Source: Candidatus Heimdallarchaeota archaeon
GTDB taxonomy: Archaea > Asgardarchaeota > Heimdallarchaeia > Heimdallarchaeales > Heimdallarchaeaceae
Reading direction: 5' to 3'
NCBI GenBank assembly: GCA_019057375.1
Contig: DXJF01000114.1
Location: forward strand, 1-64,000
DNA: 64,000 nt
A program made the translations under genes and the position numbers. Below are positions 1,157-43,673 of this stretch, piece after piece (positions within the stretch are counted from its first letter, which is position 1; the number at the start of each line of letters is the position of its first letter). A model generated the notes under the pieces. It searched no databases. It was given only the letters and a program-made list of their open reading frames with translations, and was not told the DNA's origin.

Positions 1157-1993
1157 CTATCCTAACACTCCAGAAAAGTAGAAGAAGAACACAAAAAGTG
1201 CTACAGGAATTGTGATTGCAATAAAAGCATTAACCCAAGCCATTTTTCCTATGATTCTTAATGATATAGAGGAATAGATAATAAATACAAGCCATAAAGC
1301 TACCATTAATCCCTTAAATATCCACATTACTGGAGAGCCATACAAGTTATTTATATAAATGGCAAAATCTATAAAATCCACGGAGCTTGAATTTCCTAAA
1401 CCCCCTGATGGTCCCATTAACGTTAAAAATATACCAAGAAATTCTCCTACAGTAATAGCTGCAAGTGAATAACCAATTATTGATTTGAATTGTTTTGTTG
1501 TTGCCTCGGAGCCAAGTATTGCTGCAAATTTTGCCATTAACCAAGTTGCAATAAATAGGAATATTTTGTACATCAACCAAACTACTAACGGCATTATAAC
1601 TAAAGTAACTAAAAACAAAATGAATCCCATTGATATTGTCATTGACCACTTTTCATGAGTAGGATCCCCAATTACGAAAAAGGTTGAATATACAACTCCT
1701 GATTTTATCATAACCATATAGTATCGCAAAGAGAGAAACAGTGAAAATAGGAGTAAAATTATATTACCACCTTTTTTTTCAGCAGCAATTGCGATTTCTT
1801 CACTGGTTCTAAAAGGATGTCTAAAATATGCATACAATCGTATGAAGACTTCTCTTAATGAGGGTTTGAATGAAAATTTCTTCAATTCATATTCCAGAAG
1901 TCCAAAACCACAAAATGGGCAAACAGAGTATTCTAATGGAACAGTCTCAGAACAGCTTGGGCATTTTTGTGTGCTTTCACTCATGTTGCTCAA
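1157..1993 (-). CDS. Zinc-ribbon plus Yip1-like multipass membrane protein
   Basis: N-terminal CPSC...CPFCG, then YFRHP and about five hydrophobic segments in a Yip1-like layout. Confidence 0.6.
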   Translation of the reverse strand: MSNMSESTQKCPSCSETVPLEYSVCPFCGFGLLEYELKKFSFKPSLREVFIRLYAYFRHPFRTSEEIAIAAEKKGGNIILLLFSLFLSLRYYMVMIKSGVVYSTFFVIGDPTHEKWSMTISMGFILFLVTLVIMPLVVWLMYKIFLFIATWLMAKFAAILGSEATTKQFKSIIGYSLAAITVGEFLGIFLTLMGPSGGLGNSSSVDFIDFAIYINNLYGSPVMWIFKGLMVALWLVFIIYSSISLRIIGKMAWVNAFIAITIPVALFVFFFYFSGVLG

Positions 1994-2083
1994 ATCTCTA
2001 TATTGGTTTAGGTTTAATATCTATTTTGACTAGTTAATGAAAACCTTTGTGTTAAATGTAAGGAGAAATTGAAGTATAAAAAA

Positions 2084-2836
2084 TCATCTTTTTCTTTTGT
2101 CGGACCTCTTCTTCATAATTCTAAAGAGGGATATTAGAGGAAATATCACTAGTAAGGAAGATATATCCATAAAGACGGTCTTAGTCTGACTTTCAATTTC
2201 TAAATTAGTTGAAATTAGTTCTATAGATAGTTCATATAATCCATATGATGTATGTGCTTTGAGTAAAACTCCTGTAGAACTATGATAGTATAAAGCTGAA
2301 AACTGTCCATTATAATCACTAGTTTGGAATAAAGTAACTTCATATGATTTATTTTCTCCATTAATGTTCTGCTCAAAATTACTTATCTCATCAATAGTTG
2401 TATTAGTTTGCTGAACTTGTGATTCAATGTTTTCCCAGTCAGATGAATTGGCAAAGAAACCTCCATTCCAAGGATAAATCCCAATAGTTAAACCAAATGC
2501 CAAATCAACATTCCTAACATTATAAAAAGTACTGTTTGTCATAGTATTTCCGAGAAATAAGGTCCCATTAATTTCAGTTTCAGTGATCGAAGTCATACTA
2601 TATCTAATTTGATCGTTAGGAACCACTGACCAGTTCCCAAAATATGTCCCCGGAGGCCAATTTCCATAAAATACGTTCTCAGTACCACTTGATTCTAGAA
2701 CTTCATAAGTAAGCAAATCCCCTATTTCTAACCCTATATTTGATGAAGCTGTTGTTAAACTAAAAATGGTAAACATGCATAGGAAAATTACACAAAGTGA
2801 AGAAATTGAAATTTTATTGGTTTTTTTAGATTGCAT
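2084..2836 (-). CDS. Secreted protein with C-terminal membrane anchor
   Basis: Signal peptide; C-terminal hydrophobic helix followed by basic tail KKRSDKRKR. Confidence 0.65.
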   Translation of the reverse strand: MQSKKTNKISISSLCVIFLCMFTIFSLTTASSNIGLEIGDLLTYEVLESSGTENVFYGNWPPGTYFGNWSVVPNDQIRYSMTSITETEINGTLFLGNTMTNSTFYNVRNVDLAFGLTIGIYPWNGGFFANSSDWENIESQVQQTNTTIDEISNFEQNINGENKSYEVTLFQTSDYNGQFSALYYHSSTGVLLKAHTSYGLYELSIELISTNLEIESQTKTVFMDISSLLVIFPLISLFRIMKKRSDKRKR

Positions 2837-2892
2837 ATTAAACCCTAGGAAAGCGATTACATGTTTTTATTAGAACATGCTTAAATTTATTG

Positions 2893-2985
2893 TGGCGGAC
2901 CAGGCAGGATTCGAACCTGCGACCCCCAGCTGTCTTCAGTATAAACTTCCGAAGGCTGGTGCCTTATCCACTAGACTACTGGTCC
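2893..2985 (-). tRNA. tRNA-Arg(TCG) with 17-nt intron at 37/38 (2932-2948); CCA encoded
   Basis: Full cloverleaf GGACCAG...CTGGTCC G CCA; strict BHB CTTC-GGA-AGT-TTAT-ACT-GAAG-ACA; 76 nt after splicing. Confidence 0.95.
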
Positions 2986-3097
2986 ATACTAATTTTCCTT
3001 TTCATTATACTTATTATCTTTTCTGTTTAAAACTTAACAGTTGCTCATCACCTATTATGTTTAGAACTAAAAGGGATTTTGAAATATGAGAAAGAGA

Positions 3098-4336
3098 TTA
3101 TCGAGGAATGCCATTTTCAATCCATGAATTTATGAGTCTCTCGAACTCCTTTTTCTTCTTTATAGATTGAGTTTGATATGCATAAATCTGTGACATTGCT
3201 AATCCACCAAGTTCAATATAAGCCTCATCCATATCACATATTGCAGAGATTCTAGCTTTCCAATTCTCATCAGTATCGGCTTGTTGTGCATAAGACATAA
3301 ACAATCTCAATATTTTTTCTATCTTTGAAGAAACAGCTGATTCATCGGTAACAGGTTTTGTGCTCACGTCTACTTTAGCAGGTCTAGATTCTTCTCTAGG
3401 TGTTGGTTTGGGTTCAGGTTTTGAGGGAGATGGTGATTCAGCTTCTGGAGCTGGCATAGAAGGGGGTTTTTCAACTTCTTGTGATTCATCAAAAATATTT
3501 TCTTTAATTATAGGTCTTGACGAGCTTGCTGATGGTGAAGGCATAGGTTCTTTTGGAGGAGTGTAACTGATTTTGGAAGGTTCTTCTCTAATTGTTGCAG
3601 ATTCCTTCTTTTCAGAAACTGAAGAGGGAGTAGCGAATTTTATCTGATCTGGAGAAATTGTATCTTCTGCTTTGGGTGCAGGCATAGAACCTGTAGATGT
3701 GATAATAGATGCACCCCTTGAGGAAGTTGTAAAAGCATCCTTTGGAACAGATAATGTTATGTGAGGAATCTGCCTTGCATTAATAATTGCATCTAAACCT
3801 ATGTCAATTGGTTCAACTAATGGTTTTAGAGAGGGTGCTTCTGCCCCAAGTTTTAGTACTTTCTCTTTTAAGGTTTGACTTCCAGCTGTCATTAAACTAA
3901 GTTTCTTCTTTAGTTCTTGGTTTTCTTCTTGCAGTTTTTCTTCTCCTTTTTCAGCTTCAGTTTCAATCGATTCAATTGAACCCATCAGAGCATGCATCTG
4001 CAACTTAAGTTCTTCTCTTTCAGCGTTAAACAAATCCTGTTGTAATCTTGTATCTTCTATTTCTTTATCCAGATCTACTTTCTCTTTTTGCAAGTCTTCA
4101 ACTAATTTAGATAATTGATCTAATTCTGTTGTTAGCTCACGAACTTTTTCATTTGATTGTGTTTGAGACATTTTTTCTTGAAGTTTCTCAAAAAGTTTAA
4201 TTCTACGCATTGCTAATTGAGGAGAAATATTTTCTTTTTGCATGAAATTAAGAATATATTCTAAATCGTGGGGTTGAATGCTGTACTTCTTAAGAAGTTC
4301 TTCTATGGAAATGTCATTTTCACTCATAACCTTCAA
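3098..4336 (-). CDS. Coiled-coil protein with Pro/Ser/Glu-rich linker and small C-terminal helical domain
   Basis: Long ORF; heptad-rich residues ~50-165; low-complexity P/S/E/K linker. Confidence 0.6.
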   Translation of the reverse strand: MKVMSENDISIEELLKKYSIQPHDLEYILNFMQKENISPQLAMRRIKLFEKLQEKMSQTQSNEKVRELTTELDQLSKLVEDLQKEKVDLDKEIEDTRLQQDLFNAEREELKLQMHALMGSIESIETEAEKGEEKLQEENQELKKKLSLMTAGSQTLKEKVLKLGAEAPSLKPLVEPIDIGLDAIINARQIPHITLSVPKDAFTTSSRGASIITSTGSMPAPKAEDTISPDQIKFATPSSVSEKKESATIREEPSKISYTPPKEPMPSPSASSSRPIIKENIFDESQEVEKPPSMPAPEAESPSPSKPEPKPTPREESRPAKVDVSTKPVTDESAVSSKIEKILRLFMSYAQQADTDENWKARISAICDMDEAYIELGGLAMSQIYAYQTQSIKKKKEFERLINSWIENGIPR

Positions 4337-4430
4337 TAAATTGTACTAGGATTTAATTTAATAAAGTTTAGTTGTTGGCGGGAAAAGGAAACGTTTTTTT
4401 ATCTGGAGGGCCTTTTTTTTCCAAGGTGCT

Positions 4431-5459
4431 TTGATGGTAGAGCTTAGAGGATTGATGATAAATAGATTAATTGTTTTACTTCAAATTTTCATATTTCCAG
4501 CATATTTCTACATTTGGATGAATATAGAACCGATGAAAAGTGTAACTCTAGATGGCTTCTTTTTCTGGGGAACCAATCCTTTATCAGGAACACCAGAAGC
4601 AGTTATATTAAGAGGTATAGCTCCGCTAATTTTTGCACTGCCGTTTTCACTTGTTTCCTTAGTTAAAGCAACACGAGTCGCTAGTTCATACGAGCTCATG
4701 TGGAGAGCCTTAGGAAAAGTAAGAATTGATACAAAAATTTTTTACATGGTTAATGCAATTTTCTGTTTGTTCTTTTTAATTTTACCATTTGGAGCTCCTC
4801 TAATATCTGTGTTTGGAGCGTTTTTTGCAGTTAAACTAATATTATATGCATTTGGAGTCAAAAAGAATGTACCTACAATTTTAGTTGTCATCCCAGGATT
4901 ATTTCTAGCTGCCATCCCTTTGATGATAACAATTGCTTTCTTTGTGGAGTATTCAAATGTATTCGTACCAATTTGGAGTATATGGACAAGTTACGCACCA
5001 ATTTTCTATGGAGTGGTTTTATGCTTAGCCTGCGCGATTGCTATAGGCAATTTCTTGATGCTTCTTAGAGAGGGGGCCTCACAAGTGTCCTATAAGAAGG
5101 AAATTGCTGATAGAATTGGTTTAGTTATTAAGATGTTTTTGTTTGGAGGAATCTTGGCACTCTTTGCTTTTGTTGATAAATGGTCTTTGAATGGTCTTTC
5201 AATATTTATTATCAACATCATAGCTGTTGCATTAAGTGTATTCGAAACATTTGTGCGGTGGAGGAAGCAGATGATGAAGGAAACAGGTTCAGGTGGAAGA
5301 ATAATGGTTATTCTCTTCATTGCTGTAAACTTCTTTGTTAAATACATGGCAAGACCTGAAATAGCAATCACAATAATTGTTGCATTGTCAGCATGTATAT
5401 TCTTTGCGCTCTTCATTGTAGCGTATAAATATGCAACAGATGAAACATTATTTGAGTAA
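4431..5459 (+). CDS. Multipass membrane protein, unknown function
   Basis: 342-aa ORF with about nine hydrophobic segments. Confidence 0.6.
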   Translation: MMVELRGLMINRLIVLLQIFIFPAYFYIWMNIEPMKSVTLDGFFFWGTNPLSGTPEAVILRGIAPLIFALPFSLVSLVKATRVASSYELMWRALGKVRIDTKIFYMVNAIFCLFFLILPFGAPLISVFGAFFAVKLILYAFGVKKNVPTILVVIPGLFLAAIPLMITIAFFVEYSNVFVPIWSIWTSYAPIFYGVVLCLACAIAIGNFLMLLREGASQVSYKKEIADRIGLVIKMFLFGGILALFAFVDKWSLNGLSIFIINIIAVALSVFETFVRWRKQMMKETGSGGRIMVILFIAVNFFVKYMARPEIAITIIVALSACIFFALFIVAYKYATDETLFE

Positions 5460-5572
5460 TTATCAATGTGCTCATTGGAATCAAGGAATTAATAATTAAT
5501 TCCTAACCAAAATTTTTATATGCCGACTTATGAAGTCCTTATCAAATTCCCCCTAGCTTTGAGAGGGTTCCG

Positions 5573-6205
5573 ATGAGTAGCAAACATATTGATTCAGAAA
5601 TAACTATAAAAATTGAAGAAAATACTGAGAAGCTAATAAAGGAAATCTTAGCGGATCAGAAAAAAACAATTGCTTCAGTCAACAAAGAAACAGAAGGAAA
5701 GATCAAAGCAATTCAAGAAAAAATTTTAGAAGAGGCAAAAAACAGAGCTGATTCTGAATTTTTAAAAAAGAAAGCAAAGAAAGAGCTTGAACTTAAACTT
5801 CAAATTACAAAATATAGAGACGATTTGGTCTATGGTCTCATAGAAAAAGCAAAAAAGAAAATAACTGCTCTCACAGGTACCAAAGAGTATGAAAAAAGTC
5901 TTGAAAAATTGGTTTTAGAAGCTACTTTAACTCTTAAACAACCTGAAATTACTGTTTTATGTAGAAAAGAAGACAAAGATATCTTCTCTAAACAGTTTTT
6001 TGACAATATTTCTAAACAAATCACAGACAAAGAACTTGAAGTGAAATTTAACGTGTCAAAAGATTTTATCAAATCAATGGGTGGAGTAAAAGTAGAGACG
6101 ACTGATGGAAAAATCAGCATTGACAATACTTATGAGAAGAGAATTGAAAGGTCTTTAGATGTGTTAAAAAGAGAACTCTCATTATTACTCACACAAGAAA
6201 GTTGA
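5573..6205 (+). CDS. atpE: A/V-type ATP synthase subunit E
   Basis: N-terminal coiled coil; C-terminal SMGGVKVETTDGKISIDNTYEKRI motif of V-ATPase E. Confidence 0.85.
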   Translation: MSSKHIDSEITIKIEENTEKLIKEILADQKKTIASVNKETEGKIKAIQEKILEEAKNRADSEFLKKKAKKELELKLQITKYRDDLVYGLIEKAKKKITALTGTKEYEKSLEKLVLEATLTLKQPEITVLCRKEDKDIFSKQFFDNISKQITDKELEVKFNVSKDFIKSMGGVKVETTDGKISIDNTYEKRIERSLDVLKRELSLLLTQES

Positions 6206-8095: not shown

Positions 8096-8487
8096 ACAAA
8101 AAAAGGTATATGAGAATAAAAATTTATTTTTCTAGTAGAGAAGACATTCAAATTTTCTTTTCATACATGTTATAAGTACTTCTCCCAATTAATCTAATAG
8201 CTTGTTTTCTTGATAGAAGACGTCTTACTAAGAATGTAGCAAATTTATTTGTAAAACCAGGAGTAAAACTTGGCCTTTTTCCTAGTTTAGCAAGTGATTC
8301 TTTTGCTACTTTCGTTGGATTCATAGGTTTAGGAACCAAAATTCCAGGATTATCGGGTTCTGTAGCTATATAGTTAGGTGTATTGGTGATTCCAGCTGTG
8401 CATGCTAAAACATCAATATTGTGTTTCTTAAGCTCAAACCATAACCCTTCTGCAAGTATGGAGTTGCTAGTTGCTGCATAATGAACG

Positions 8488-8710
8488 CACGTTATGAAAC
8501 TTGGTTAAACTTGCCAGAGGCTTTCTAACCGTCGTTTAAGTGGGTCCCCTCACGTGCGTTGAGGGGAAGTCATCCAGACTTTGTTCTGGAATAGTAAGTG
8601 GGCCTTCAGCATAGAGCTAGCTAGGCTCCCCGTTTCATGGTAAGTTTACTGAGAGACAACCACTTGTGTAGTTGCGAAACAGGTAGGTGCTGAAGCGCAC
8701 ACTATCTAGC
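8488..8710 (-). ncRNA. Putative omegaRNA-like structured RNA inside the element
   Basis: Lies downstream of a TATA box; multiple stems (CTTCAGCA/TGCTGAAG, CAACTAC/GTGGTTG, TCCAGA/TCTGGA, TCCCCTC/GAGGGGA); ends at the element right end. Confidence 0.55.
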
Positions 8711-8728
8711 TTTCTATGTGTACTTTCA

Positions 8729-8736
8729 TATATAAA
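8729..8736 (-). promoter_or_regulatory. TATA box TTTATATA inside the element
   Basis: Archaeal TATA consensus ~25 nt upstream of the structured region. Confidence 0.5.
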
Positions 8737-9439
8737 CCCGAAGAAAAAAAAACACCCATGCTTCTCTTTCCTACATCTCCCCATAACTAGGTAGAGGACG
8801 CATGGCAAGATTAGTCAACTTTACCACAAACAGTTGTGCACGGTCAAAGGATTACCTTGAAATCCAGCCATCGAACTAACTAAGATAATTCCACCTCTTT
8901 CTCTCTTCTTCATTAATTTACCAAAATAATCAACTAATGTTACAGGTCCTCTACAGTTAATATTAATAACATTAAAATGTTCTTCCAAATCAAAATCCAG
9001 AAATGGACCTATGGGAATGATTGCAGCATTATAGACCAACGTACCAATTTCAATATCCTTAGTATGCTCTTTTATAATCTTAATTACTTCTGAATCTGCT
9101 AAATCTGCACTAATTATTCGAACATGTACTCCATGTGTTTTTTCTATATCTCTTGATAATTTTTCAAGCAGTGGTTTTCTCCTTGCAACCAGAACAAGAT
9201 TGATGCCTTTATCTGCAAGAACCCTAGTAAATGCTTCGCCTATTCCTTGAGAACCCCCCGCAATCAGTGCCCAAGGTCCGTACTTTTGTTTGAATCGTTC
9301 TTTTTTCATATGCGAAACAGCTATCAATTGAAGTTTATTAAAAAGATTAAGTAAATTAATTTTACAAGATTTTATTGGAATGTTTCTAATGTTTTGGAAG
9401 AAGTTTGGTTAGAAAAAGGAGAAAGATGAAAAAGAAAAA

Positions 9440-35367: not shown

Positions 35368-36285
35368 ATGATGAAAGTAGTAGAAGATATTACACAACTC
35401 ATTGGAGAAACTCCCTTAGTAAAACTAGGAAGGCTCTTTCCAAACTCTGAAATTTTTGGCAAATGCGAATTCATGAACCCTTTAAGTGTAAAGGATCGTC
35501 CTGTTCTGCAAATCTTTAGTGATGCTGAAGAACAAGGTTTGATTAAGCCAGGAGATACTGTGATTGAATGTACAAGTGGAAACACAGGAATGGCAGTTTC
35601 TTTGATTGCAGCCATAAAGAATTACAAAGCAATTTTAGTCATGTCAGAAATACAAAGTATTGAACGACGCCAAATTCTTAGTGCTTTGGGAGCTGAATTG
35701 ATTCTGACACCTGCGGAATTAGGGACTGAAGGGTCCCGACAGAAATTAAAGGAATTATTAGAAGAAAACCCTGATTACTTTTATATAGGACAGCATGTGA
35801 ATTCTTCAAACCCCAAAGCCCATTATCTATCAACTGGTCCTGAACTATGGGAACAAACAGAGGGAGAGATAGATATTCTAATTGCAGGATTAGGTACAGG
35901 AGGAACAATATGTGGTGCAGGTAAATACTTGAAGGAAAAAAATCCAAATGTACAATTGATTGCAGTAGAACCTTTTGAATCACCTTATATCTCTAAGGGA
36001 ATATTCAAACCCCACAAAATAATGGGCACAGCACCAGGATTTGTACCTGAAACACTTGACAAGGATATAATTGATGAGATATTTCTGGTTAAACAAGCTG
36101 ATGCTTTTGAGATGTGTAGAAAAATGGCATTAATAGAAGGTATTCTAATTGGAATAAGCTCAGGAGCAGTATGTGAGGCAGCAAAACAAATTTCGAAAAG
36201 AGTAGAGAATAAGAAAAAGAAAATTGTTGTTGTTTTAGCGGATACAGGACAAAGATACTTGAGCGTGGAAGGATTATTTGTTTGA
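35368..36285 (+). CDS. cysK: Cysteine synthase
   Basis: IGETPLV, SVKDR, TSGNTG, GLGTGGT and DTGQRYLS. Confidence 0.92.
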   Translation: MMKVVEDITQLIGETPLVKLGRLFPNSEIFGKCEFMNPLSVKDRPVLQIFSDAEEQGLIKPGDTVIECTSGNTGMAVSLIAAIKNYKAILVMSEIQSIERRQILSALGAELILTPAELGTEGSRQKLKELLEENPDYFYIGQHVNSSNPKAHYLSTGPELWEQTEGEIDILIAGLGTGGTICGAGKYLKEKNPNVQLIAVEPFESPYISKGIFKPHKIMGTAPGFVPETLDKDIIDEIFLVKQADAFEMCRKMALIEGILIGISSGAVCEAAKQISKRVENKKKKIVVVLADTGQRYLSVEGLFV

Positions 36286-36298
36286 TTTAAAAGAGGAG

Positions 36299-36321
36299 TG
36301 GTGGGGCAGGGCGGATTCGAA
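36299..36321 (-). pseudogene. 3' fragment of an intronless tRNA-Val(GAC) (allele A): T-loop to CCA
   Basis: Minus strand TTCGAAT CCGCC CTGCCCC A CCA; T-stem CCGCC differs from the intact gene and complements GGCG of the 5' fragment. Confidence 0.85.
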
Positions 36322-36360
36322 TAGACTCCTTTAAAATGAGGGAAAGGAAGAGTTTTAAGA

Positions 36361-38328
36361 TTGAACGGTAAAATGTACGAGATGAAAGAGCAAAGAATTC
36401 TAGTATTTATTCTGGTATTCTATCTTACTTTAAATGTAAATATAATTAAAGCCAATAGAACTGATACTTTTCTCTTAACAACCACAAACACCTCTATTCA
36501 GGATAATAAAGCATCAACAGTAAGTCAAACCAGTTCATTGTTCATAGATGATGACTCTGATTTCATCACACTTAACTTCCCTGGAAGTGGAACAAAAGGT
36601 GACCCCTACTTAATTGAAAACTATCAAATCATCACCACTGGTAGAGAAGCAGGTATTGATATTCAGAATACAAGTAAACATTTCATTATTAGAAATTGTA
36701 CTATTGAAACTGACAGTTGGGGTATTCGACTAAATGAAATAGCTCCTAATACAGCATCAATCATTGATAATGAGTTCATAGATAATGATTATACAGCTAT
36801 ATCCATCTACAATTCAATTGGAGTTACAATTTCCAATAATAAATTCAAAAATAATGACGAAGCATTATACTTAAGGAAATCTAGTTTCTTAACTATATCT
36901 AACAATACGTTTGAAGAGAATTGGCATGGTTTGCTCACATCTGGAACTGATTCATTAATTATAGAAGACAACTTTTTCTATTCAAATGTAATTGCAATAA
37001 GCATTACAGCAGTTACTGGTTTTTGTATCAAAAATAATGTTTTTAAAAATAATTCCAGATACGGAATGAATCTATATGCAACAGACAACACACTGGTTTC
37101 GAATAATACATGCAGTGATAGTGGATGGCGAGGAATCCTAGTTCGTCAGTCGATGTTTGTTGTTTTAAACCATAACACTCTTACTAATGATGGTATCCAC
37201 ATTGATTATTACTCGGTAGAATATGGAAGTTTTTCAAATAATCAAGTCAATTCTAGAATTCTTGGATTTTTCAAAAATAAGAATGACTTAGAACTAAAAG
37301 ACCCAATTTATGGTCAGTTAATTTTGTCAGACTGTAAAAAGGGAACCATTTCTAATCAAAATCTCTCAAACACAAGCATTGGTATAACATTGTACAATTG
37401 TGAGAAGACCACCATAATAAATAGTACTTGTAACAATAATGACGGTGATGGAATCCAAATTCATAATTCTGATGGATGTTCAGTGAGTAATAACACTTGC
37501 AATAATAATGATAATGGGATCAGTGTTGTAAACTCAAATCATTGTAATGTATCGAATAATATCTTACTTGGGAATTGGGAGAGCATAGAATTAACAAAAT
37601 CTAACTCAGCAGAAATTAATCTAAACAAATGTTCATTTAACAAAAACCATGGAATAACAATAATAAATTCCGAATATGGATTTGTAACTAATAACAATTG
37701 TTCAGATAATCATAACGATGGAATTCGAATACTAAGTTCAAATTATTTCGTGATTGCTAACAACTCGTGTATAAATAACAGAGAGGAGGCAATTTACTTA
37801 ATAACAACTATTGTTTCTATTGTTTACAATAATCTCTGCAAAAATAACACAAACGGGATATACATCGGACATTCAGGATTTAGTCCTATTCCTGAATTTG
37901 TACCCCCACCTCCAGATTCATATTCGGAAGTAATTTCTAATCATCTTGAAGAAAATAGTAAATATGGAGTTTATCTTAATCGACTGACTCAGGATAACAG
38001 CATACATCATAATTCCTTCATTAATAATGGTGAGGAAGGAATAGCACAAGCTTATGACACAGGATATAGAAATACTTGGTTTGATAAGAAGACAAATGAA
38101 GGTAATTTTTGGTCTGATATGGGGACCGGATCTTATGAAATTGCAGGAGAAGCAAATTCAATCGACAAATATCCGCTAATGGAACCCAAAATGATAGAAA
38201 TGCCGGAAATTCCATCAAATTGGCCAACTTACAGAACTAAATCTAATCCACAAATAATATGCATAGGAATAGTGACATTAGTTATTCTGAAACGTAGAAA
38301 ATTAAGATTTAAAAGAAGAAAAATCTAA
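36361..38328 (+). CDS. Right-handed parallel beta-helix (NosD/CASH-like) secreted surface protein
   Basis: Signal peptide (likely start 36382); GSGTKGDPYLIEN; Asn-rich PbH1 repeats; GNFWSD; TM plus basic tail. Confidence 0.85.
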   Translation: MNGKMYEMKEQRILVFILVFYLTLNVNIIKANRTDTFLLTTTNTSIQDNKASTVSQTSSLFIDDDSDFITLNFPGSGTKGDPYLIENYQIITTGREAGIDIQNTSKHFIIRNCTIETDSWGIRLNEIAPNTASIIDNEFIDNDYTAISIYNSIGVTISNNKFKNNDEALYLRKSSFLTISNNTFEENWHGLLTSGTDSLIIEDNFFYSNVIAISITAVTGFCIKNNVFKNNSRYGMNLYATDNTLVSNNTCSDSGWRGILVRQSMFVVLNHNTLTNDGIHIDYYSVEYGSFSNNQVNSRILGFFKNKNDLELKDPIYGQLILSDCKKGTISNQNLSNTSIGITLYNCEKTTIINSTCNNNDGDGIQIHNSDGCSVSNNTCNNNDNGISVVNSNHCNVSNNILLGNWESIELTKSNSAEINLNKCSFNKNHGITIINSEYGFVTNNNCSDNHNDGIRILSSNYFVIANNSCINNREEAIYLITTIVSIVYNNLCKNNTNGIYIGHSGFSPIPEFVPPPPDSYSEVISNHLEENSKYGVYLNRLTQDNSIHHNSFINNGEEGIAQAYDTGYRNTWFDKKTNEGNFWSDMGTGSYEIAGEANSIDKYPLMEPKMIEMPEIPSNWPTYRTKSNPQIICIGIVTLVILKRRKLRFKRRKI

Positions 38329-38334
38329 AGAGTA

Positions 38335-38443
38335 TGGTGGGGCAGGCAAGATTCGAACTTGCGACTTCCTCCACTTTTTGTCTGTAGGTTTTCCACCTTG
38401 CAGATGTCAAGGAGGTATCATAGCCAAGCTAGATCACTGCCCC
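38335..38443 (-). tRNA. tRNA-Val(GAC) (allele B) with 31-nt intron (38375-38405), probably at 36/37; CCA encoded
   Basis: Full cloverleaf GGGGCAG...CTGCCCC A CCA; intron hairpin TCTG/CAGA plus AGGT/ACCT; relaxed BHB. Confidence 0.92.
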
Positions 38444-38478
38444 TTTTGCCGATAAGCTTTTCGCCTACTTTTCTTTCC

Positions 38479-38504
38479 TTGTTTTCTTTAAATGTTTTTT
38501 GTTA
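38479..38504 (-). promoter_or_regulatory. tRNA promoter block (BRE/TATA-like) of allele B
   Basis: 25/26 identical to 40745-40770 at the same distance (36 vs 37 nt) from the tRNA 5' end. Confidence 0.65.
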
Positions 38505-38641
38505 TCCAGCTCTTTTAGTCAAGTAGACAAATTCGCAGAAAACATGGACAAGCTAGCCATATCCTTTGCAAGAAGTATAAACAGACAACAGAGAGGAAAA
38601 ACCCATCATAACAGAAGATTTTATCGAGTTTAAAAACCATT

Positions 38642-40594
38642 TTGTGGATATTGTTACTGAGTGAATTGGTCACACAAGCAACAAGTAAAACTCAAACAAT
38701 TATGTCTCCCTCGTCAAAGGGAGTGATGAGAAGTTATCAGGTGGTGCTCAAGTGTATAGACCAATCCCAAAGAGAAGAGATTAACCAGAGAATAAAAACA
38801 TTAGAAGAACAACAAAATCAGCTACTCACCCCTCAAGTTGTCAAGCAAGCAGTAGAACTCTATAGAACCAATCCCAAAGAAGGATTTTTCACACGCCAAC
38901 TCTGCAAAAAAGTAGGGAAAAGTCCAAATATTGCAGAAAGTGCTTTCCACTGGTTATACATAGCTATCAAAGGAAAGATAGATAAGGAGAAGAAAGTGGA
39001 AGGGTTATTGAGCTTTCTTTTGAAAAATCCTCAACAGCTGATAGAATGGCTGATTTTTGGTCGTTCCCCTTATACTGAGCGAAGTTTAGAAAACTATTGG
39101 AGACTAAAAAGAAAATATATCATTAACCTCCTCACCAGTACTAGATCCAAAACTGATTCCTATTGGAGAAAAAAACACAAACACAACTATTTTGCTGACT
39201 TCCTACAATTCAACGACTCCCTTCCTTTTACGTCACAAACTGATATCCTCCAAGCTCTTGATGATGCGCTGTTTTACTACAATCATGAATTTTCTCTCAT
39301 CCCACAGCTTACCAAAAATCAGAAAGCATTTCTGAAAAAACTCCAACTCTTAAAGAAGGAACAAAAAACTGTAGTACCTTTTCTCACTTCATGGATCAAA
39401 GGTCCTCAAACTTCTCGATGGAAAAGTCTCAAAACTCTCTCCGAACAACTAGCTTCAATTATAGGCAAACCTTCTCGAAAACTCTTTTCAGTAGTTAGAC
39501 TGATAATTGTTTTCACACTCTTTGATCATTACATGCAGAGTGTCCCTCAGTTAGTTAAGGCTCTCCCTATTGCTAATGTTGTTCCCCTACCATTTAAACG
39601 AAAAAAGAAAGGAAGATTACCAATCAAATTGCTAATGAAGAAAAACTATGTTATCACCCGTCAAGGGAATGCTCAAGAATTGACTGATCAGGTAAAAAAA
39701 CAAGGATGGACGGAATTTTGTTTTCCGCAAAAGGGAAAACAGCGACTAACAGCTCAAGTTCACTTTCCTAAAAAAGTAATAGGGTATATTGGAAATGGTG
39801 CACACTTCAAAGTCTTCCAAGTAAGTAGTGGACAAGCTCCTAGTTTCAAACCTAGGGTGGATGTGGTACTCGAAGGAGCTCATGCTTGCTTCCATTCATC
39901 CAAACTTCTTCACCGTTATCTTGCTAATGTTTCTGCAAAGAAAGCTTCTATTCTTGGAGTAGATATTAACCGCTTAGGACAGTATATGGTCGTGTTTAAC
40001 ACCCCTATCCCTCTGCCTCCAGATTTACTAAACTTAGCAGCACACTATAAACATCTCAGCACAAAAGTTCTGGATGAGTTGAACACAGGTTTTCTCCGTA
40101 AAAGAAAAGAGTATGATTCCCACGGGTGTTGTAAACTTAAAGGTGAACTTGACCGTGTTTATACTCGTCGCAGCCGCATCCTTCGCGAAATCACTTATCT
40201 CCTCCCCCACTTTCTTGCTGCAGTAATGGTGAAAAAGAAGTGTAAAGTGTTAAAGATTGAACGTTTAACTGTTGATCCTACCGGCACCAGAGGAGCTTTA
40301 GCTAAAGCTATTTACACCATGCCCGATAGTTTGTTCATTTACAAAAAAGCAGTGTGGTTAGCTTCTTTGGAGTTAGGGTATGATGTGCAGTTAGAAGCAG
40401 TTCACCCATATCATACCAGCACCATTCATTACGGATGTGGAGGTCTTCTTACTCGTCAAAAAGGTCAGTATGATGTTGCTCCTTGTAAAAAGTGTGGTCA
40501 AAAGGTCCCTACTCATGCTAATGCTGCCAAAAATATTGCTTCCCTTCAAGGTATCTTTCTTCCTCCCGATTCCTTCCCCTCAACGCACGTGTAG
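38642..40594 (+). CDS. tnpB: Large TnpB/Cas12f-like RuvC protein (likely start ATG 38702, 630 aa)
   Basis: RuvC-I ILGVDIN, RuvC-II VLKIERL, HPYHTS-x-HxxC...CxxC zinc finger, RuvC-III THANAAKNI. Confidence 0.85.
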   Translation: MWILLLSELVTQATSKTQTIMSPSSKGVMRSYQVVLKCIDQSQREEINQRIKTLEEQQNQLLTPQVVKQAVELYRTNPKEGFFTRQLCKKVGKSPNIAESAFHWLYIAIKGKIDKEKKVEGLLSFLLKNPQQLIEWLIFGRSPYTERSLENYWRLKRKYIINLLTSTRSKTDSYWRKKHKHNYFADFLQFNDSLPFTSQTDILQALDDALFYYNHEFSLIPQLTKNQKAFLKKLQLLKKEQKTVVPFLTSWIKGPQTSRWKSLKTLSEQLASIIGKPSRKLFSVVRLIIVFTLFDHYMQSVPQLVKALPIANVVPLPFKRKKKGRLPIKLLMKKNYVITRQGNAQELTDQVKKQGWTEFCFPQKGKQRLTAQVHFPKKVIGYIGNGAHFKVFQVSSGQAPSFKPRVDVVLEGAHACFHSSKLLHRYLANVSAKKASILGVDINRLGQYMVVFNTPIPLPPDLLNLAAHYKHLSTKVLDELNTGFLRKRKEYDSHGCCKLKGELDRVYTRRSRILREITYLLPHFLAAVMVKKKCKVLKIERLTVDPTGTRGALAKAIYTMPDSLFIYKKAVWLASLELGYDVQLEAVHPYHTSTIHYGCGGLLTRQKGQYDVAPCKKCGQKVPTHANAAKNIASLQGIFLPPDSFPSTHV

Positions 40595-40654
40595 GGGACC
40601 CATTCAAACGACGGTTAAATAGCCTCTGCAAGTTTAACCAAGTTTCATAACGTG
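40573..40654 (+). repeat. Element right end / 3' part of omegaRNA scaffold
   Basis: 82-nt repeat shared with 8488-8569; hairpins CCCCT/AGGGG and GGTT/AGCC conserved, with changes in the loop. Confidence 0.85.
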
Positions 40655-40708
40655 CGCCGACTTCCTCCACGTCAAGGAGGTATCATAGCCAGGCTAGATC
40701 ACTGCCCC
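40655..40708 (-). pseudogene. 5' fragment of intronless tRNA-Val(GAC) (allele A), truncated in the T-stem
   Basis: GGGGCAG TG ATCT AGCCTGGCTA TGAT A CCTCC TTGACGT GGAGG AAGTC GGCG, then the element end. Confidence 0.9.
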
Positions 40709-40744
40709 CTTTTATTGATAGGTCTTTCTTCGTTCTCTTCTTTC

Positions 40745-40770
40745 TTGTTTTCTTTAAATATTTTTTGTTA
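40745..40770 (-). promoter_or_regulatory. tRNA promoter block of allele A
   Basis: Minus strand TAACAAAAAATATTTAAAGAAAACAA; homologous to 38479-38504. Confidence 0.65.
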
Positions 40771-41057
40771 CAAATCTATGTTTCACCAATATTTGATATT
40801 TCTCTCTTTTTGGTTCATTAAAATCTTCTTTTTTTTCATTCTAATTATTAATTTGGTTTCTTCTAATTTGCTCGTTTTCTTTAATATTTCCCCCTTAAGA
40901 TACCATTTTGTCAAACTTTCGTTTTTTTCCGACTCAAAATCATATTCCAATCCTTGTTTCTTTTTTCAATATCACTAGGTAACATTTATAAAAACTTCAG
41001 CAGACAATCTATCAAAGGAATAGTGTTAAACTATTCTGTCCACTCGAGTGATTTATT

Positions 41058-43673
41058 ATGGATAAAAGTGTAGCAATGTCTTTAAAAATCGTTGGTTTTC
41101 TCCTTATTCTTACTTCTGCCTGGGTACCTATATATACAATTACATTTGATTCTACAACAACTGAACCTGAACCAATTATTCTTGTTGGTTCTCAGAGCAT
41201 TACTGGAGTCCTTCATAATGTATATTACGAAAATAATCTAGCATTTGTAGTAGATTCAGATACAGGGTTAAATATTGTAAATGTAACTGATGCAACAACA
41301 CCTGAGATTATTGGGACATACAATATTGCAAATGGGGCCAATGGTATATTCGTGAAGGATAACTATGCTTACATTGCAGATACGGTCACAGGATTACAGA
41401 TTGTTAATATTACTGACCCTACTTCACCAACACAAGTTGGTACATATAGTATTACAGGAGGGGCCACTGATGTATTTGTATCAGGAAATTATACTTACAT
41501 TGTAGATTCAACAATAGGGTTTCAAATACTAAATATTAGTGACCCAACAACACCAACACAAGAGGGTGTATTTAGTATTTCAGGGGAAATAAACAGTTTA
41601 ATTGTAAAAGATGAATTCGCATATATTGTAGATTCAGTAACTGGTTTACGTATTCTAAATATTACTGACGCAACTTTACCAAGCTTGGTTGCAACCTTCG
41701 ATGTAAACGAACCAGTATATGATGTAGCTGTTTTAGGAAGTTATGCTTACATTGTTGGTGAAAATATTGGCATACAAGTAGTAAATATAAGTAATCCTCA
41801 ATCTCCCGTTCTCACTAGTTCTTATTATATTGAAGGAAATGTCAATGGAATACATATTGAAAATGAACATGCATATATTGTTGATTCGACTGTTGGAATA
41901 CAAATTGTTTCAATTATAAATCCAGAAGAATTAACTATTGTAGGCTCACAGGAAATTACAGGAGAGATATATGGAATATTCGTAAAAGATGGATATGCAT
42001 ATGTTGTAGGATCAGATCTAGAAATCTTTATAGTAAGACCCAGATCTGAGTATGATTCATCAGGTACACTAGTACGAATCTTCGGTTTCAAAATCGATTA
42101 TAAAATGTTAACTTACAGTAGTGCAAACAACCTCGCTCAAGAACGATTCTTGGAAGCAGAAACACCCAGTAGTGTTGTTATTCTTGCTGCAGCTTTGTGG
42201 TTTATACTAATCTTTGCTACAGCTGCTGTTGTTTTGGGTCAGGTTTTTCAAAGTGGTGGTTTCAAATCGAGGGGCACTATTGCAGATATTGCTGCAGGAA
42301 TTCTTTTACTTTTGGCTCTGGTAGTTGCTATTTTATCAATGAGCAGATCAATGATTATAGCAGCAGAAAGATACCAAGCTTTAGTAACGGGACAAACTGC
42401 AGCCTCAACGGTGCCTCTTACGTTTAACCCGAATGATTCTACACCAGCTTACTTTGACATTGGTTTAACAGGTTCAGTTGGACCAGGATTCTACATATTC
42501 ACCATTGGAATATTAATGATGGTAACTGGTATCTTTCTACCAGTCAATTGGCAACAACCAACCAGCTCCAAAATGTCAAGAAGAATTGGTGATACTGGTG
42601 TTCTTAGATGGGTTAAAAACATAGCATCATTAAGATTAACTACTTATGTTACTAGAAGATTATTAACACTTATTCCTCTCTTCATTGCAATATGTGTGAT
42701 GACATTTGTAATGGTAAACGGAATGGGTGACCCAGTTGCATTATTGCTACTTGGAAAACAAAGAGTAACGGAACAAGATAGGATAAATCTTACTAAAAAA
42801 CTTGGTCTAGATCAGCCCATTTATATTCAATTCGTTACTTGGTTCTATAACCTTATACGAGGGGACATGGGTATAAGTTTCCAATCAGGTCAATCAATTA
42901 ATAATATGATTGGTGGATTAATTTGGGAAACTTTAAAGCTTCAGTTAGCATCATTTGTGCTAGCTTTGCTTATTTCGATACCTTTGGGTGTTTTAGCAGC
43001 AAAGAATCAAAATACTTGGATTGACTCAGCTGCAAGTTCTTTCGCACTCTTAGGTCTCTCAATGCCAATTTTTGTGTTTGGTTTATTAATGATTTATATA
43101 TTCAGCGGATATGGTTTAGGATGGTTCCCAGCTGCAAAAGCTCACCGAATACCAGCGCCCACGCCTGTGTTTAGTCAGACGAACTGGCAATTATTCTGGT
43201 CAGGGCAGTGGGGAGGTGTTGGTGGATTTTGGAATAATGTAGGTGTAAGATTAGGGGATTCACTCCTTCATATGGCTTTACCAACTATAACTTTGACATT
43301 TGCTTTCTTAGCCCTATATACTAGGTTAGTTAGGGCAACAATGCTTGAAGTTCTTAGACAAGATTATGTCTTATCTGCAAGAGCAAATGGAATATCTGAA
43401 AGAACCATTACATGGAGACATGCATTCAGAAATGTTTTGATCCCTGTAGTAACCTATGTTGGGTTGTTTATGGCTACAGCTTTAGCTGGAGCTCCAATTA
43501 CTGAAACACTCTTCACATGGCCGGGTTTAGGATTCAAATATGTAGGTGCGGTGCTTCTTTTGGACTTCCCGATGGTCTTAGGTACGACGGCGATTCTGAC
43601 TTTACTTATCTTACTAGGTAACTTGATAACAGATATTGCTTATGTTGCGGTAGATCCGCGTATAGAACTATGA
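41058..43673 (+). CDS. Fusion: 4-TM domain with inserted LVIVD repeats plus OppB/DppB-type ABC permease
   Basis: About six LVIVD repeats (YAYIAD..TGLQIVNITDPT.P); C-terminal GLDQPIYIQF...LARANG.SE.TI..RHAFRN...DIAY..VDPRI. Confidence 0.85.
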   Translation: MDKSVAMSLKIVGFLLILTSAWVPIYTITFDSTTTEPEPIILVGSQSITGVLHNVYYENNLAFVVDSDTGLNIVNVTDATTPEIIGTYNIANGANGIFVKDNYAYIADTVTGLQIVNITDPTSPTQVGTYSITGGATDVFVSGNYTYIVDSTIGFQILNISDPTTPTQEGVFSISGEINSLIVKDEFAYIVDSVTGLRILNITDATLPSLVATFDVNEPVYDVAVLGSYAYIVGENIGIQVVNISNPQSPVLTSSYYIEGNVNGIHIENEHAYIVDSTVGIQIVSIINPEELTIVGSQEITGEIYGIFVKDGYAYVVGSDLEIFIVRPRSEYDSSGTLVRIFGFKIDYKMLTYSSANNLAQERFLEAETPSSVVILAAALWFILIFATAAVVLGQVFQSGGFKSRGTIADIAAGILLLLALVVAILSMSRSMIIAAERYQALVTGQTAASTVPLTFNPNDSTPAYFDIGLTGSVGPGFYIFTIGILMMVTGIFLPVNWQQPTSSKMSRRIGDTGVLRWVKNIASLRLTTYVTRRLLTLIPLFIAICVMTFVMVNGMGDPVALLLLGKQRVTEQDRINLTKKLGLDQPIYIQFVTWFYNLIRGDMGISFQSGQSINNMIGGLIWETLKLQLASFVLALLISIPLGVLAAKNQNTWIDSAASSFALLGLSMPIFVFGLLMIYIFSGYGLGWFPAAKAHRIPAPTPVFSQTNWQLFWSGQWGGVGGFWNNVGVRLGDSLLHMALPTITLTFAFLALYTRLVRATMLEVLRQDYVLSARANGISERTITWRHAFRNVLIPVVTYVGLFMATALAGAPITETLFTWPGLGFKYVGAVLLLDFPMVLGTTAILTLLILLGNLITDIAYVAVDPRIEL

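Follow-up and report, generated by a model that had tools for sequence, protein, structure and literature searches.

A TnpB-like element in a split tRNA-Val(GAC) gene of a Heimdallarchaeota archaeon, accompanied by a second tRNA allele mismatched to its predicted guide

TnpB elements are known to guard their own sites by cutting empty copies, and the logic of guide and homing leads to RNA-guided restoration of the transposon at vacated sites (PMC8612924; bioRxiv 10.1101/2023.03.14.532601; PMC11061315). Here we describe a TnpB-like element that lies in a split tRNA-Val(GAC) gene of Candidatus Heimdallarchaeota archaeon, together with a complete tRNA-Val(GAC) gene of a different allele. The window, by which we mean the whole stretch of 64,000 nucleotides that was analysed (GenBank assembly GCA_019057375.1, contig DXJF01000114.1, positions 1 to 64,000), is contig C65 of a source genome assembled to 3.47 Mb in 159 contigs, with 33% G+C, 89% completeness and 4.95% contamination. 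We call this genome G000; other G numbers are related genomes (congeners), C numbers are contigs and L numbers are loci. An element in an essential single-copy tRNA gene, combined with a replacement that its guide does not match, would be a new arrangement. In the limited collection of literature that was searched, we found no description of a tRNA gene split by a TnpB element that brings along a replacement mismatched to its guide.

The IS200/IS605 and IS607 elements with TnpB and omega-RNA, such as ISDra2 and ISFba1, have much in common with the element described here. Both have a TnpB/Cas12f fold, a conserved and structured right end with a variable flank next to it, a short motif at the left, precise insertion without duplication in canonical copies, and a predicted guide that is the sequence of the unoccupied site. 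The motif and the precise insertion hold for the canonical copies of our family but not for the outer left junctions of the two composites that split tRNA genes. Our element also differs in its protein of 650 amino acids with a long N-terminal extension, in a His at the place of the third catalytic Asp, and in having no transposase partner that we could find. Unlike those elements it lies in a tRNA gene that is essential and single-copy, and copying would take along a replacement gene mismatched to the guide as well as cargo.

The closest layout described is that of Caldiarchaeum subterraneum (Sugahara et al. 2012, PMC3293823), where the 5' fragment of a tRNA-Thr gene is followed by a 1.9-kb repeat element and then by a complete tRNA gene to which an intron has been added. 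The two cases share a leftover 5' fragment with its upstream region, a repeated element and a complete tRNA gene of the same anticodon that has gained an intron, and in Caldiarchaeum the population contains both occupied and element-free alleles (PMC3293823). The Caldiarchaeum insert supplies only positions 1-27 and reuses the 3' part of the host gene, whereas here a whole gene arrives with its own promoter and the 3' piece is left unused 2 kb away. The protein of that element was uncharacterised and no guide logic was proposed (PMC3293823), whereas ours is TnpB-like. Type V-K CRISPR-associated transposons use a dedicated guide for tRNA attachment sites (bioRxiv 10.1101/2021.02.06.429022), so they too combine a Cas12-family protein with a guide aimed at a tRNA gene region in the choice of a site for a mobile element. 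They insert downstream of an unbroken tRNA gene, however, with Tn7-like machinery and no replacement tRNA. Archaeal elements at tRNA genes that carry an integrase (the pNOB8 and SSV types) resemble our locus in having tRNA targets, in leaving tRNA fragments and in keeping a functional tRNA, but our locus lacks an integrase and an overlapping direct repeat, no half of the host gene is reused, and a transposon end forms one of the borders. Drives engineered on the principles of cleave-and-rescue and home-and-rescue direct a guided nuclease against an essential gene and link it to a recoded version to which the guide is mismatched. A predicted guide and a mismatched copy are linked in the same way at our locus, where the arrangement is natural and prokaryotic and its function putative; spread there would need polyploidy or the exchange of DNA between cells.

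The insert is 4,335 bp long and is flanked by two pieces of one intronless tRNA-Val(GAC) gene on the minus strand, which we call allele A. It contains a gene for a beta-helix surface protein, a complete tRNA-Val(GAC) gene that has an intron and a promoter of its own, which we call allele B, and a TnpB-like element of 2.1 kb. The parts of the locus and the evidence for each are as follows.

35368..36285, plus strand: cysK-like pyridoxal phosphate enzyme gene, left flank (Pfam PALP, E 8.6e-67); syntenic beside tRNA-Val(GAC) in most congeners examined
36299..36321, minus strand: 3' piece of allele A, T loop to CCA, positions 54-76 (100% identity to the corresponding end of the intact G013 and G009 genes; piece and junction also in G024)
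36322..36345, plus strand: outer edge of the insert, resembling the start of the family's left end (first 8 bases 7/8 against the left-end start of copy C92)
36361..38328, plus strand: cargo gene for a 655-amino-acid right-handed beta-helix protein, NosD-like (Pfam NosD 9e-44, Beta_helix 1e-42)
38335..38443, minus strand: allele B tRNA-Val(GAC), with exon 1 at 38405-38443, intron at 38374-38404 and exon 2 with CCA at 38335-38373
38444..38523, minus strand: promoter region of allele B (TATA-like box 38486-38492)
38524..40656, plus strand: TnpB-like insertion element of about 2.13 kb, with left end 38524-38641, open reading frame (ORF) 38642-40594 and right-end scaffold at about 40573-40656
38642..40594, plus strand: intact gene for the 650-amino-acid TnpB/Cas12f-like protein (Pfam, PDB sequence matches, structure model)
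40573..40656, plus strand: candidate guide-RNA scaffold of 84 nucleotides at the right end (conservation across the genus; covarying fold)
40657..40676, plus strand: predicted 20-nucleotide guide, antisense of allele A positions 50 to 31 (match to intact alleles of congeners)
40657..40708, minus strand: 5' piece of allele A, positions 1-50, intronless (100% identity to the intact gene in G013, G009, G023, G020 and G016)
40709..40800, minus strand: allele A promoter and upstream region (TATA-like box 40752-40758; 98.9% identity to the region upstream of the intact gene in G013)
41058..43673, plus strand: opp-type permease fusion gene, right flank (Pfam BPD_transp_1 and LVIVD; syntenic in relatives)

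A first-pass annotation, made by a model from the letters of the window, had described one tRNA gene split around an insert that holds a complete second tRNA-Val(GAC) with a 31-nucleotide intron and its own promoter, a surface-protein gene and a tnpB-like gene. The split is confirmed by both pieces and by empty sites in relatives, and the contents by Rfam, ARAGORN and Pfam. The annotation began the 5' piece at 40655 and counted G53 as the only missing base, and here it has to be corrected. Because the conserved right end of the element runs to 40656 (terminal GTGCG), the CG at 40655-40656 belongs to the element and three bases, positions 51-53, have been lost.

A tRNA-Val(GAC) gene lies between cysK and an opp permease gene in most of the 20 syntenic congener loci that were examined. 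Two congeners, G013 and G009, have at this same cysK-opp site exactly the gene that is obtained by rejoining the two pieces; it is intronless, the pieces are 100% identical and the flanks are 93-96% identical. The 5' part of allele A is likewise 100% identical in the intact intronless genes that G023, G020 and G016 have at this site. These are the empty sites with an intact intronless allele A for which the first-pass annotation had suggested looking. Because relatives have empty sites, the comparison of sequences indicates that the resident gene was intact before the 4,335-bp insertion.

The right end of the element directly abuts the 5' piece of allele A. When the intact tRNA gene is read on the strand of the element, GAACCG (from the T loop and T stem) stands directly before the 20 nucleotides that now follow the right end. 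From published work on TnpB, this is the layout of motif and guide to be expected if the guide recognises an empty site (PMC8612924; bioRxiv 10.1101/2023.03.14.532601). The predicted guide matches at 20/20 positions beside GAACCG in six congeners (G013, G009, G023, G020, G016 and G012) and beside GAACCA in three more. Against this same guide allele B of G000 has the motif GAACTT, differs at position 1 and is interrupted by its intron after 13 matches, which leaves 5/20 positions mismatched. Guide and motif fit intact allele A and not the carried allele B, and by this comparison allele B is predicted to be resistant. As RNA, the mature carried tRNA is complementary to the predicted guide at 18/20 positions by eye, which is relevant only if this TnpB variant acts on RNA. 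The promoter of allele A (40709-40800, minus strand) is intact and now directed through the 5' piece into the right end of the element; a transcript from it would run antisense to both the candidate guide RNA and the tnpB 3' end.

Allele B was found by Rfam (tRNA, 49.3 bits) and by ARAGORN with introns allowed. Its intron of 31 nucleotides (38374-38404) is in the canonical position, and the tRNA folds as a cloverleaf with the intron as well as after splicing. A 27-nucleotide core of its promoter is 96% identical to the promoter of allele A while the remainder is diverged, and both strands of the T stem differ between the two alleles. It is the sole Val(GAC) gene among the 40 tRNA matches in this 89%-complete assembly. 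The first-pass annotation had claimed that the target was left broken and that a whole diverged isoacceptor was supplied in its stead. The broken gene and the whole, different allele are there, but allele B is not a distant isoacceptor. Because its intron is homologous to the native introns of G015 and G014, and because its T arm is present in an intronless gene of G011, sequence comparison places it in the gene pool of the genus.

The element belongs to a family with seven full copies in G000 (72-84% amino-acid identity), along with three distant paralogues and several remnants that consist of a right end only. The full copies are homologous from end to end and 72-83% identical in DNA. Across the genus the right end is about 90% conserved and stops at the same last base, the equivalent of 40656, in well over 150 copies with unrelated flanks. 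In the consensus fold of this right end the last seven bases pair with an internal stretch, and three pairs show compensatory changes, the terminal pairing included; the copy on C145, which ends in A instead of G, has a compensating change in the terminal pairing. On the left, ACCG or a one-base variant of it stands immediately before the left end in eight independent copies, short non-coding derivatives included. The empty sites of copies C21 and C92 show a precise insertion after the motif with no duplication. A structured scaffold followed by a variable flank is the layout of the right end in TnpB/OMEGA elements, and we regard the scaffold as a candidate guide RNA on the strength of its conservation and fold.

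The repeated unit begins on the left at about 38524 and includes neither the tRNA nor the cargo, because the homology among the seven full copies stops within about 140 nucleotides upstream of the tnpB start, well short of both. We therefore reject the idea of a recurrent module of tRNA-B and tnpB. Other copies of this exact module, which the first-pass annotation had proposed to look for, occur nowhere else in 47 genomes of the order. The cargo protein ends in a hydrophobic and then a basic stretch by eye, and a 76%-identical homologue of it sits between cysK and tRNA-Val in G005. No integrase was found in the insert; among its ORFs of at least 60 amino acids the only family assignments are the beta-helix and TnpB-like proteins. 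There is also no direct repeat of a tRNA segment at the borders. The two pieces of allele A do not overlap, which rules out an attachment repeat of the integrase type, and the functional gene is a separate whole copy.

The 650-amino-acid protein matches Pfam Cas12f1-like_TNB at 22.9 bits, which is below the cut-off. Among PDB sequences phmmer matches it to 8hr5 (CnCas12f1, deposited as 'Transposase') with E 4e-5, and there is a match to a TnpB (9nzp) as well. Its structure model has a predicted local distance difference test score of 81, and Foldseek aligns the model to Cas12f, ISFba1 TnpB and ISDra2 TnpB with E 1e-10 to 1e-6 and probability 1.00. We class the intact protein as TnpB/Cas12f-like, with a RuvC fold and an inserted zinc-ribbon (TNB) domain in the model. 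Its homologues are labelled Candidatus Heimdallarchaeota or Heimdallarchaeaceae by their sources, and D441, E540 and H625 are invariant in the 24 homologues that were aligned.

The same arrangement is found a second time in G000, at a different valine tRNA gene. There, on C145, a tRNA-Val(CAC) gene was cut in the anticodon loop, and its 5' piece directly meets the right end of another member of the family, which is 74% identical. The truncated left side of this element adjoins a complete, different tRNA-Val(CAC), which is followed by about 1.5 kb of small ORFs and then by the matching 3' piece. An intact matching Val(CAC) gene is present in G006 with CCACTG before the target, and the Val(CAC) carried on C145 has 6/20 guide mismatches and has lost the motif. 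This recurrence of the layout at Val(CAC) argues against coincidence. The larger of the C145 cargo ORFs (L033, 5957-6619) weakly resembles the SocA/Panacea antitoxin domain, with a match below threshold, and a gene for a C-5 cytosine methyltransferase begins right after the 3' tRNA piece.

Relatives also hold what look like later states. G024 has the same left junction, cargo gene and 3' scar, and an intron-bearing allele with the T arm of B and the promoter and D loop of allele A, and it has no element; this allele is the only Val(GAC) match listed for that genome. Allele A positions 39-50 are kept in G000 and absent from G024. Because G000 holds these positions, the state of G024 is best derived from a state like that of G000 and not the reverse, probably by recombination between the two 5' halves. 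The gene at the Val(CAC) site of G013 and G009 is a chimera, whose promoter and acceptor stem are those of the broken allele and whose core is that of the carried one. Mixed valine tRNA genes of this kind, with parts of the broken and carried alleles, are found at L055/L056 (G009:C6 and G013:C135), L029 (G011) and L030 (G024). These genes look like resolved former insertions, which suggests fast turnover of alleles. The tRNA-Val(GAC) of G018 (L004, G018:C52, about 315-392) has an acceptor 3' strand that fails to pair with its 5' strand at two positions, and it is either a recombinant pseudogene or the product of a strain-mixed assembly. Single crossovers of the Campbell type between carried and resident tRNA were considered on paper, and the gene orders that they predict were not observed.

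We believe these observations are best brought together as guided homing with rescue, in which the only resident tRNA-Val(GAC) gene is occupied by a composite TnpB element that brings an allele mismatched to the guide, and we give this reading an even chance of being correct. The composite lies at the family's motif ACCG, which in the resident gene is formed by the T loop and T stem on the opposite strand. Its right edge is the canonical right end of the family, while its left edge resembles a further left end of that family. The insertion breaks the resident gene and at the same time brings in a complete allele from the genus pool, equipped with a promoter and different exactly where the guide RNA would need to pair. 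RNA from the right end would use the adjacent 16-20 nucleotides as a guide and steer TnpB to unoccupied sites. Repair of the break by copying the occupied allele would then copy the whole insert, with the rescue tRNA and cargo included. Later the element may be deleted when the tRNA pieces left behind recombine with the carried gene, and its loss would leave a chimeric tRNA gene that is resistant to the guide and has possibly gained an intron. The insertion, the empty sites, the canonical junction and motif at the right end, the pattern of guide matches and mismatches, the second locus and the chimeras of relatives are seen in the sequences; that a guide RNA is made, that DNA is cut, that homing occurs and how the composite arose are what we infer. 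The logic of cleave-and-rescue or addiction, which the first-pass annotation had put forward, is a coherent proposal that the motif, the guide, the mismatches and the recurrence back.

It is important to realize that a number of results weigh against this proposal. The catalytic Asp-Glu-Asp triad is incomplete: the third RuvC residue is a His (His625) in 24/24 homologues and in 10/10 paralogues, and because this is so throughout the family the predicted nuclease activity is uncertain. Branches of TnpB with the same Asp-to-His change exist and were judged possibly active (PMC10691335). No Y1_Tnp match was found in the 89%-complete G000, and its four serine recombinase genes (resolvase type) are all on contigs without a tnpB copy. 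Allele B retains its match to the guide at positions 2-14. The left junctions are irregular, with three motif bases lost here and, at C145, a 5-bp duplication and about 50 nucleotides of filler that contain an inverted 11-mer of the tRNA; the insert therefore was not placed by a clean canonical event. The outer edge resembles the left-end start with p of about 0.002-0.004 against random genome windows when the comparison is anchored, but an unanchored local alignment is not significant, the C145 outer edge has no significant resemblance even when anchored at the junction, and a genome-wide nhmmer search with a left-end profile does not detect the outer edges. No motif stands before the inner left end. 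A pattern search of the 47 genomes of the order found junctions of a right end with tRNA-Val only at the two G000 loci, and the exact junction had no match in metagenome contigs. The chemistry of the left junctions, with the loss of 3 nucleotides here and the duplication and filler at C145, could not be matched to a known mechanism. Cas1 was considered as a candidate transposase; G000 has one ordinary Cas1, on an unrelated contig.

Several of the same facts could be read without any drive. A transposase acting in trans could have moved the unit between a stray left end and the right end as a passive composite transposon, along with a tRNA-Val and a surface-protein gene that happened to be its neighbours. 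The spare tRNA would have made the landing tolerable and the guide would have no role. This explanation takes in the canonical motif and right-end junction at the site and the likeness of the outer edge to a left end; it also has no trouble with the His in place of the RuvC-III Asp, and the short non-coding derivatives show that ends of this family are mobilised in trans. It speaks against it that a Val(GAC) unit lies in Val(GAC) and a different, Val(CAC) unit lies in Val(CAC), in one genome with only seven full copies, which is very unlikely for untargeted transposition at a motif of 4 nucleotides. The left junctions are unclean, and no transposase was found in G000. We think it unlikely, but it deserves to be kept in mind.

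The first-pass annotation had offered a stepwise history, in which an island came first, then tnpB, then a deletion. In its fuller form, an island with the surface-protein gene and tRNA-B entered the T loop through an integrase that is not known or by one-sided homologous recombination, the TnpB element followed independently, and deletions tidied the junctions. Such a build-up at a hotspot has some appeal. The tRNA-Val loci of the genus hold several scars and islands (G005, C47, G022, G005:C102), the island is present without the element in G024, and the cargo gene is natively beside tRNA-Val in G005. However, G000 cannot be derived from a state like that of G024, which is without allele A positions 39-50. 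Had the element entered an existing island later by canonical insertion, the T loop and ACCG should also still flank its inner left end; neither has left a remnant there, and for that reason we reject such an insertion and disfavour the history that depends on it. At two independent loci nothing separates the right end from the tRNA piece, and there is neither an integrase nor a flanking direct repeat. We consider this history quite unlikely.

A third possibility keeps the guide and gives it to the host. A TnpB with a fixed guide could be retained to cut or block incoming DNA that has the old tRNA-Val sequence, such as elements that integrate in tRNA genes or competing strains, while the recoded tRNA of the host is safe. 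The guide does match the alleles of relatives and not the host's own, and small TnpBs beside Val(TAC) in G000 and Val(GAC) in G005 keep only 15-18 nucleotides of a foreign tRNA allele at their right ends. Against this, the copy in the window belongs to an actively repeated family, and the full 5' tRNA piece and promoter that it retains point to a recent insertion and not to a fixed host gene; TnpB at this site is conserved in 0/24 congeners. We find a service of this kind to the host improbable. An assembly artefact, in which reads of two strains with different tRNA-Val alleles were joined across the repeated element, is suggested by the metagenome-assembled source with its 4.95% contamination, but we hold it to be very improbable given an identical 13.9 kb in a second assembly (a 155-kb ENA contig), element copies that at 72-83% DNA identity are too diverged to mislead an assembler, the independent presence of the left junction in G024, and a right-end junction at the canonical base beside the canonical motif.

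Guided homing with rescue can be extended from this locus to the group. We offer as a tentative idea, and one we would not bet on at present, that the TnpB elements of the Heimdall group are natural RNA-guided home-and-rescue drives in essential tRNA genes. They would cut unoccupied alleles, either on copies of the chromosome or in incoming DNA, and be copied with a resistant tRNA and cargo. The distribution of the element is patchy, with chimeric alleles in relatives. If the idea is true, some of the most conserved sequences of a genome become safe and widely shared sites for homing, and nature has a parallel to the engineered gene drives of the rescue type. Such drives would also explain islands at archaeal tRNA genes that have no integrase, by offering a mechanism for them, and they would speed the turnover of tRNA alleles. 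Intron gain and recoded stems would then be footprints that outlast the element, which makes testable the older idea that archaeal tRNA introns and recoded stems are traces left by conflict with mobile elements. Among close relatives one can see the occupied state as well as the chimeric alleles that look resolved. The Asp-to-His variant, with its defined motif (ACCG) and predicted guide, is a test case for whether such variants cut DNA.

Short derivatives of the family, non-coding and about 330 nucleotides long, lie in the window at 8486-8850 (minus strand) and elsewhere in G000 at C81:24410-24739, C40:1-143 and C49:36421 onward. Each has the left-end start, its own TATA-like box and the 84-nucleotide right-end scaffold. 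They could be miniature elements mobilised in trans or stand-alone genes for guide RNA. Matches to the right end only are far more numerous than full copies in G005, G008 and G022.

Other tRNA genes of these genomes have TnpB genes beside them. On C47 of G000 (1651-5961, L063) the third valine tRNA gene, tRNA-Val(TAC), is followed by a 4.2-kb island without an integrase, for which relatives have an empty site. The island begins with an ordinary TnpB of 401 amino acids, continues with a PLD-like nuclease and two ORFs of unknown function, and ends in a 22-nucleotide copy of the 3' end of the tRNA. The 18 nucleotides after the right end of this TnpB resemble positions 24-41, the anticodon arm, of another Val(TAC) allele. 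In G005 (L013, G005:C8, 3860-5280) a TnpB of 404 amino acids, of the same small type, lies 51 nucleotides from an intact tRNA-Val(GAC). Its right end abuts a 15-nucleotide fragment (positions 24-38) of an allele of the G000 type, one base different from the gene of G005, and a 10-nucleotide scar of a tRNA 3' end follows cysK in the same genome. Finally, at C47:49300-51900 of G000 a 44%-identical paralogue of the 650-amino-acid protein stands beside a 42-nucleotide copy of the 3' end of tRNA-Leu, and about 130 nucleotides past its stop codon there is an intron-bearing sequence like tRNA-Leu, matched over about 100 nucleotides.

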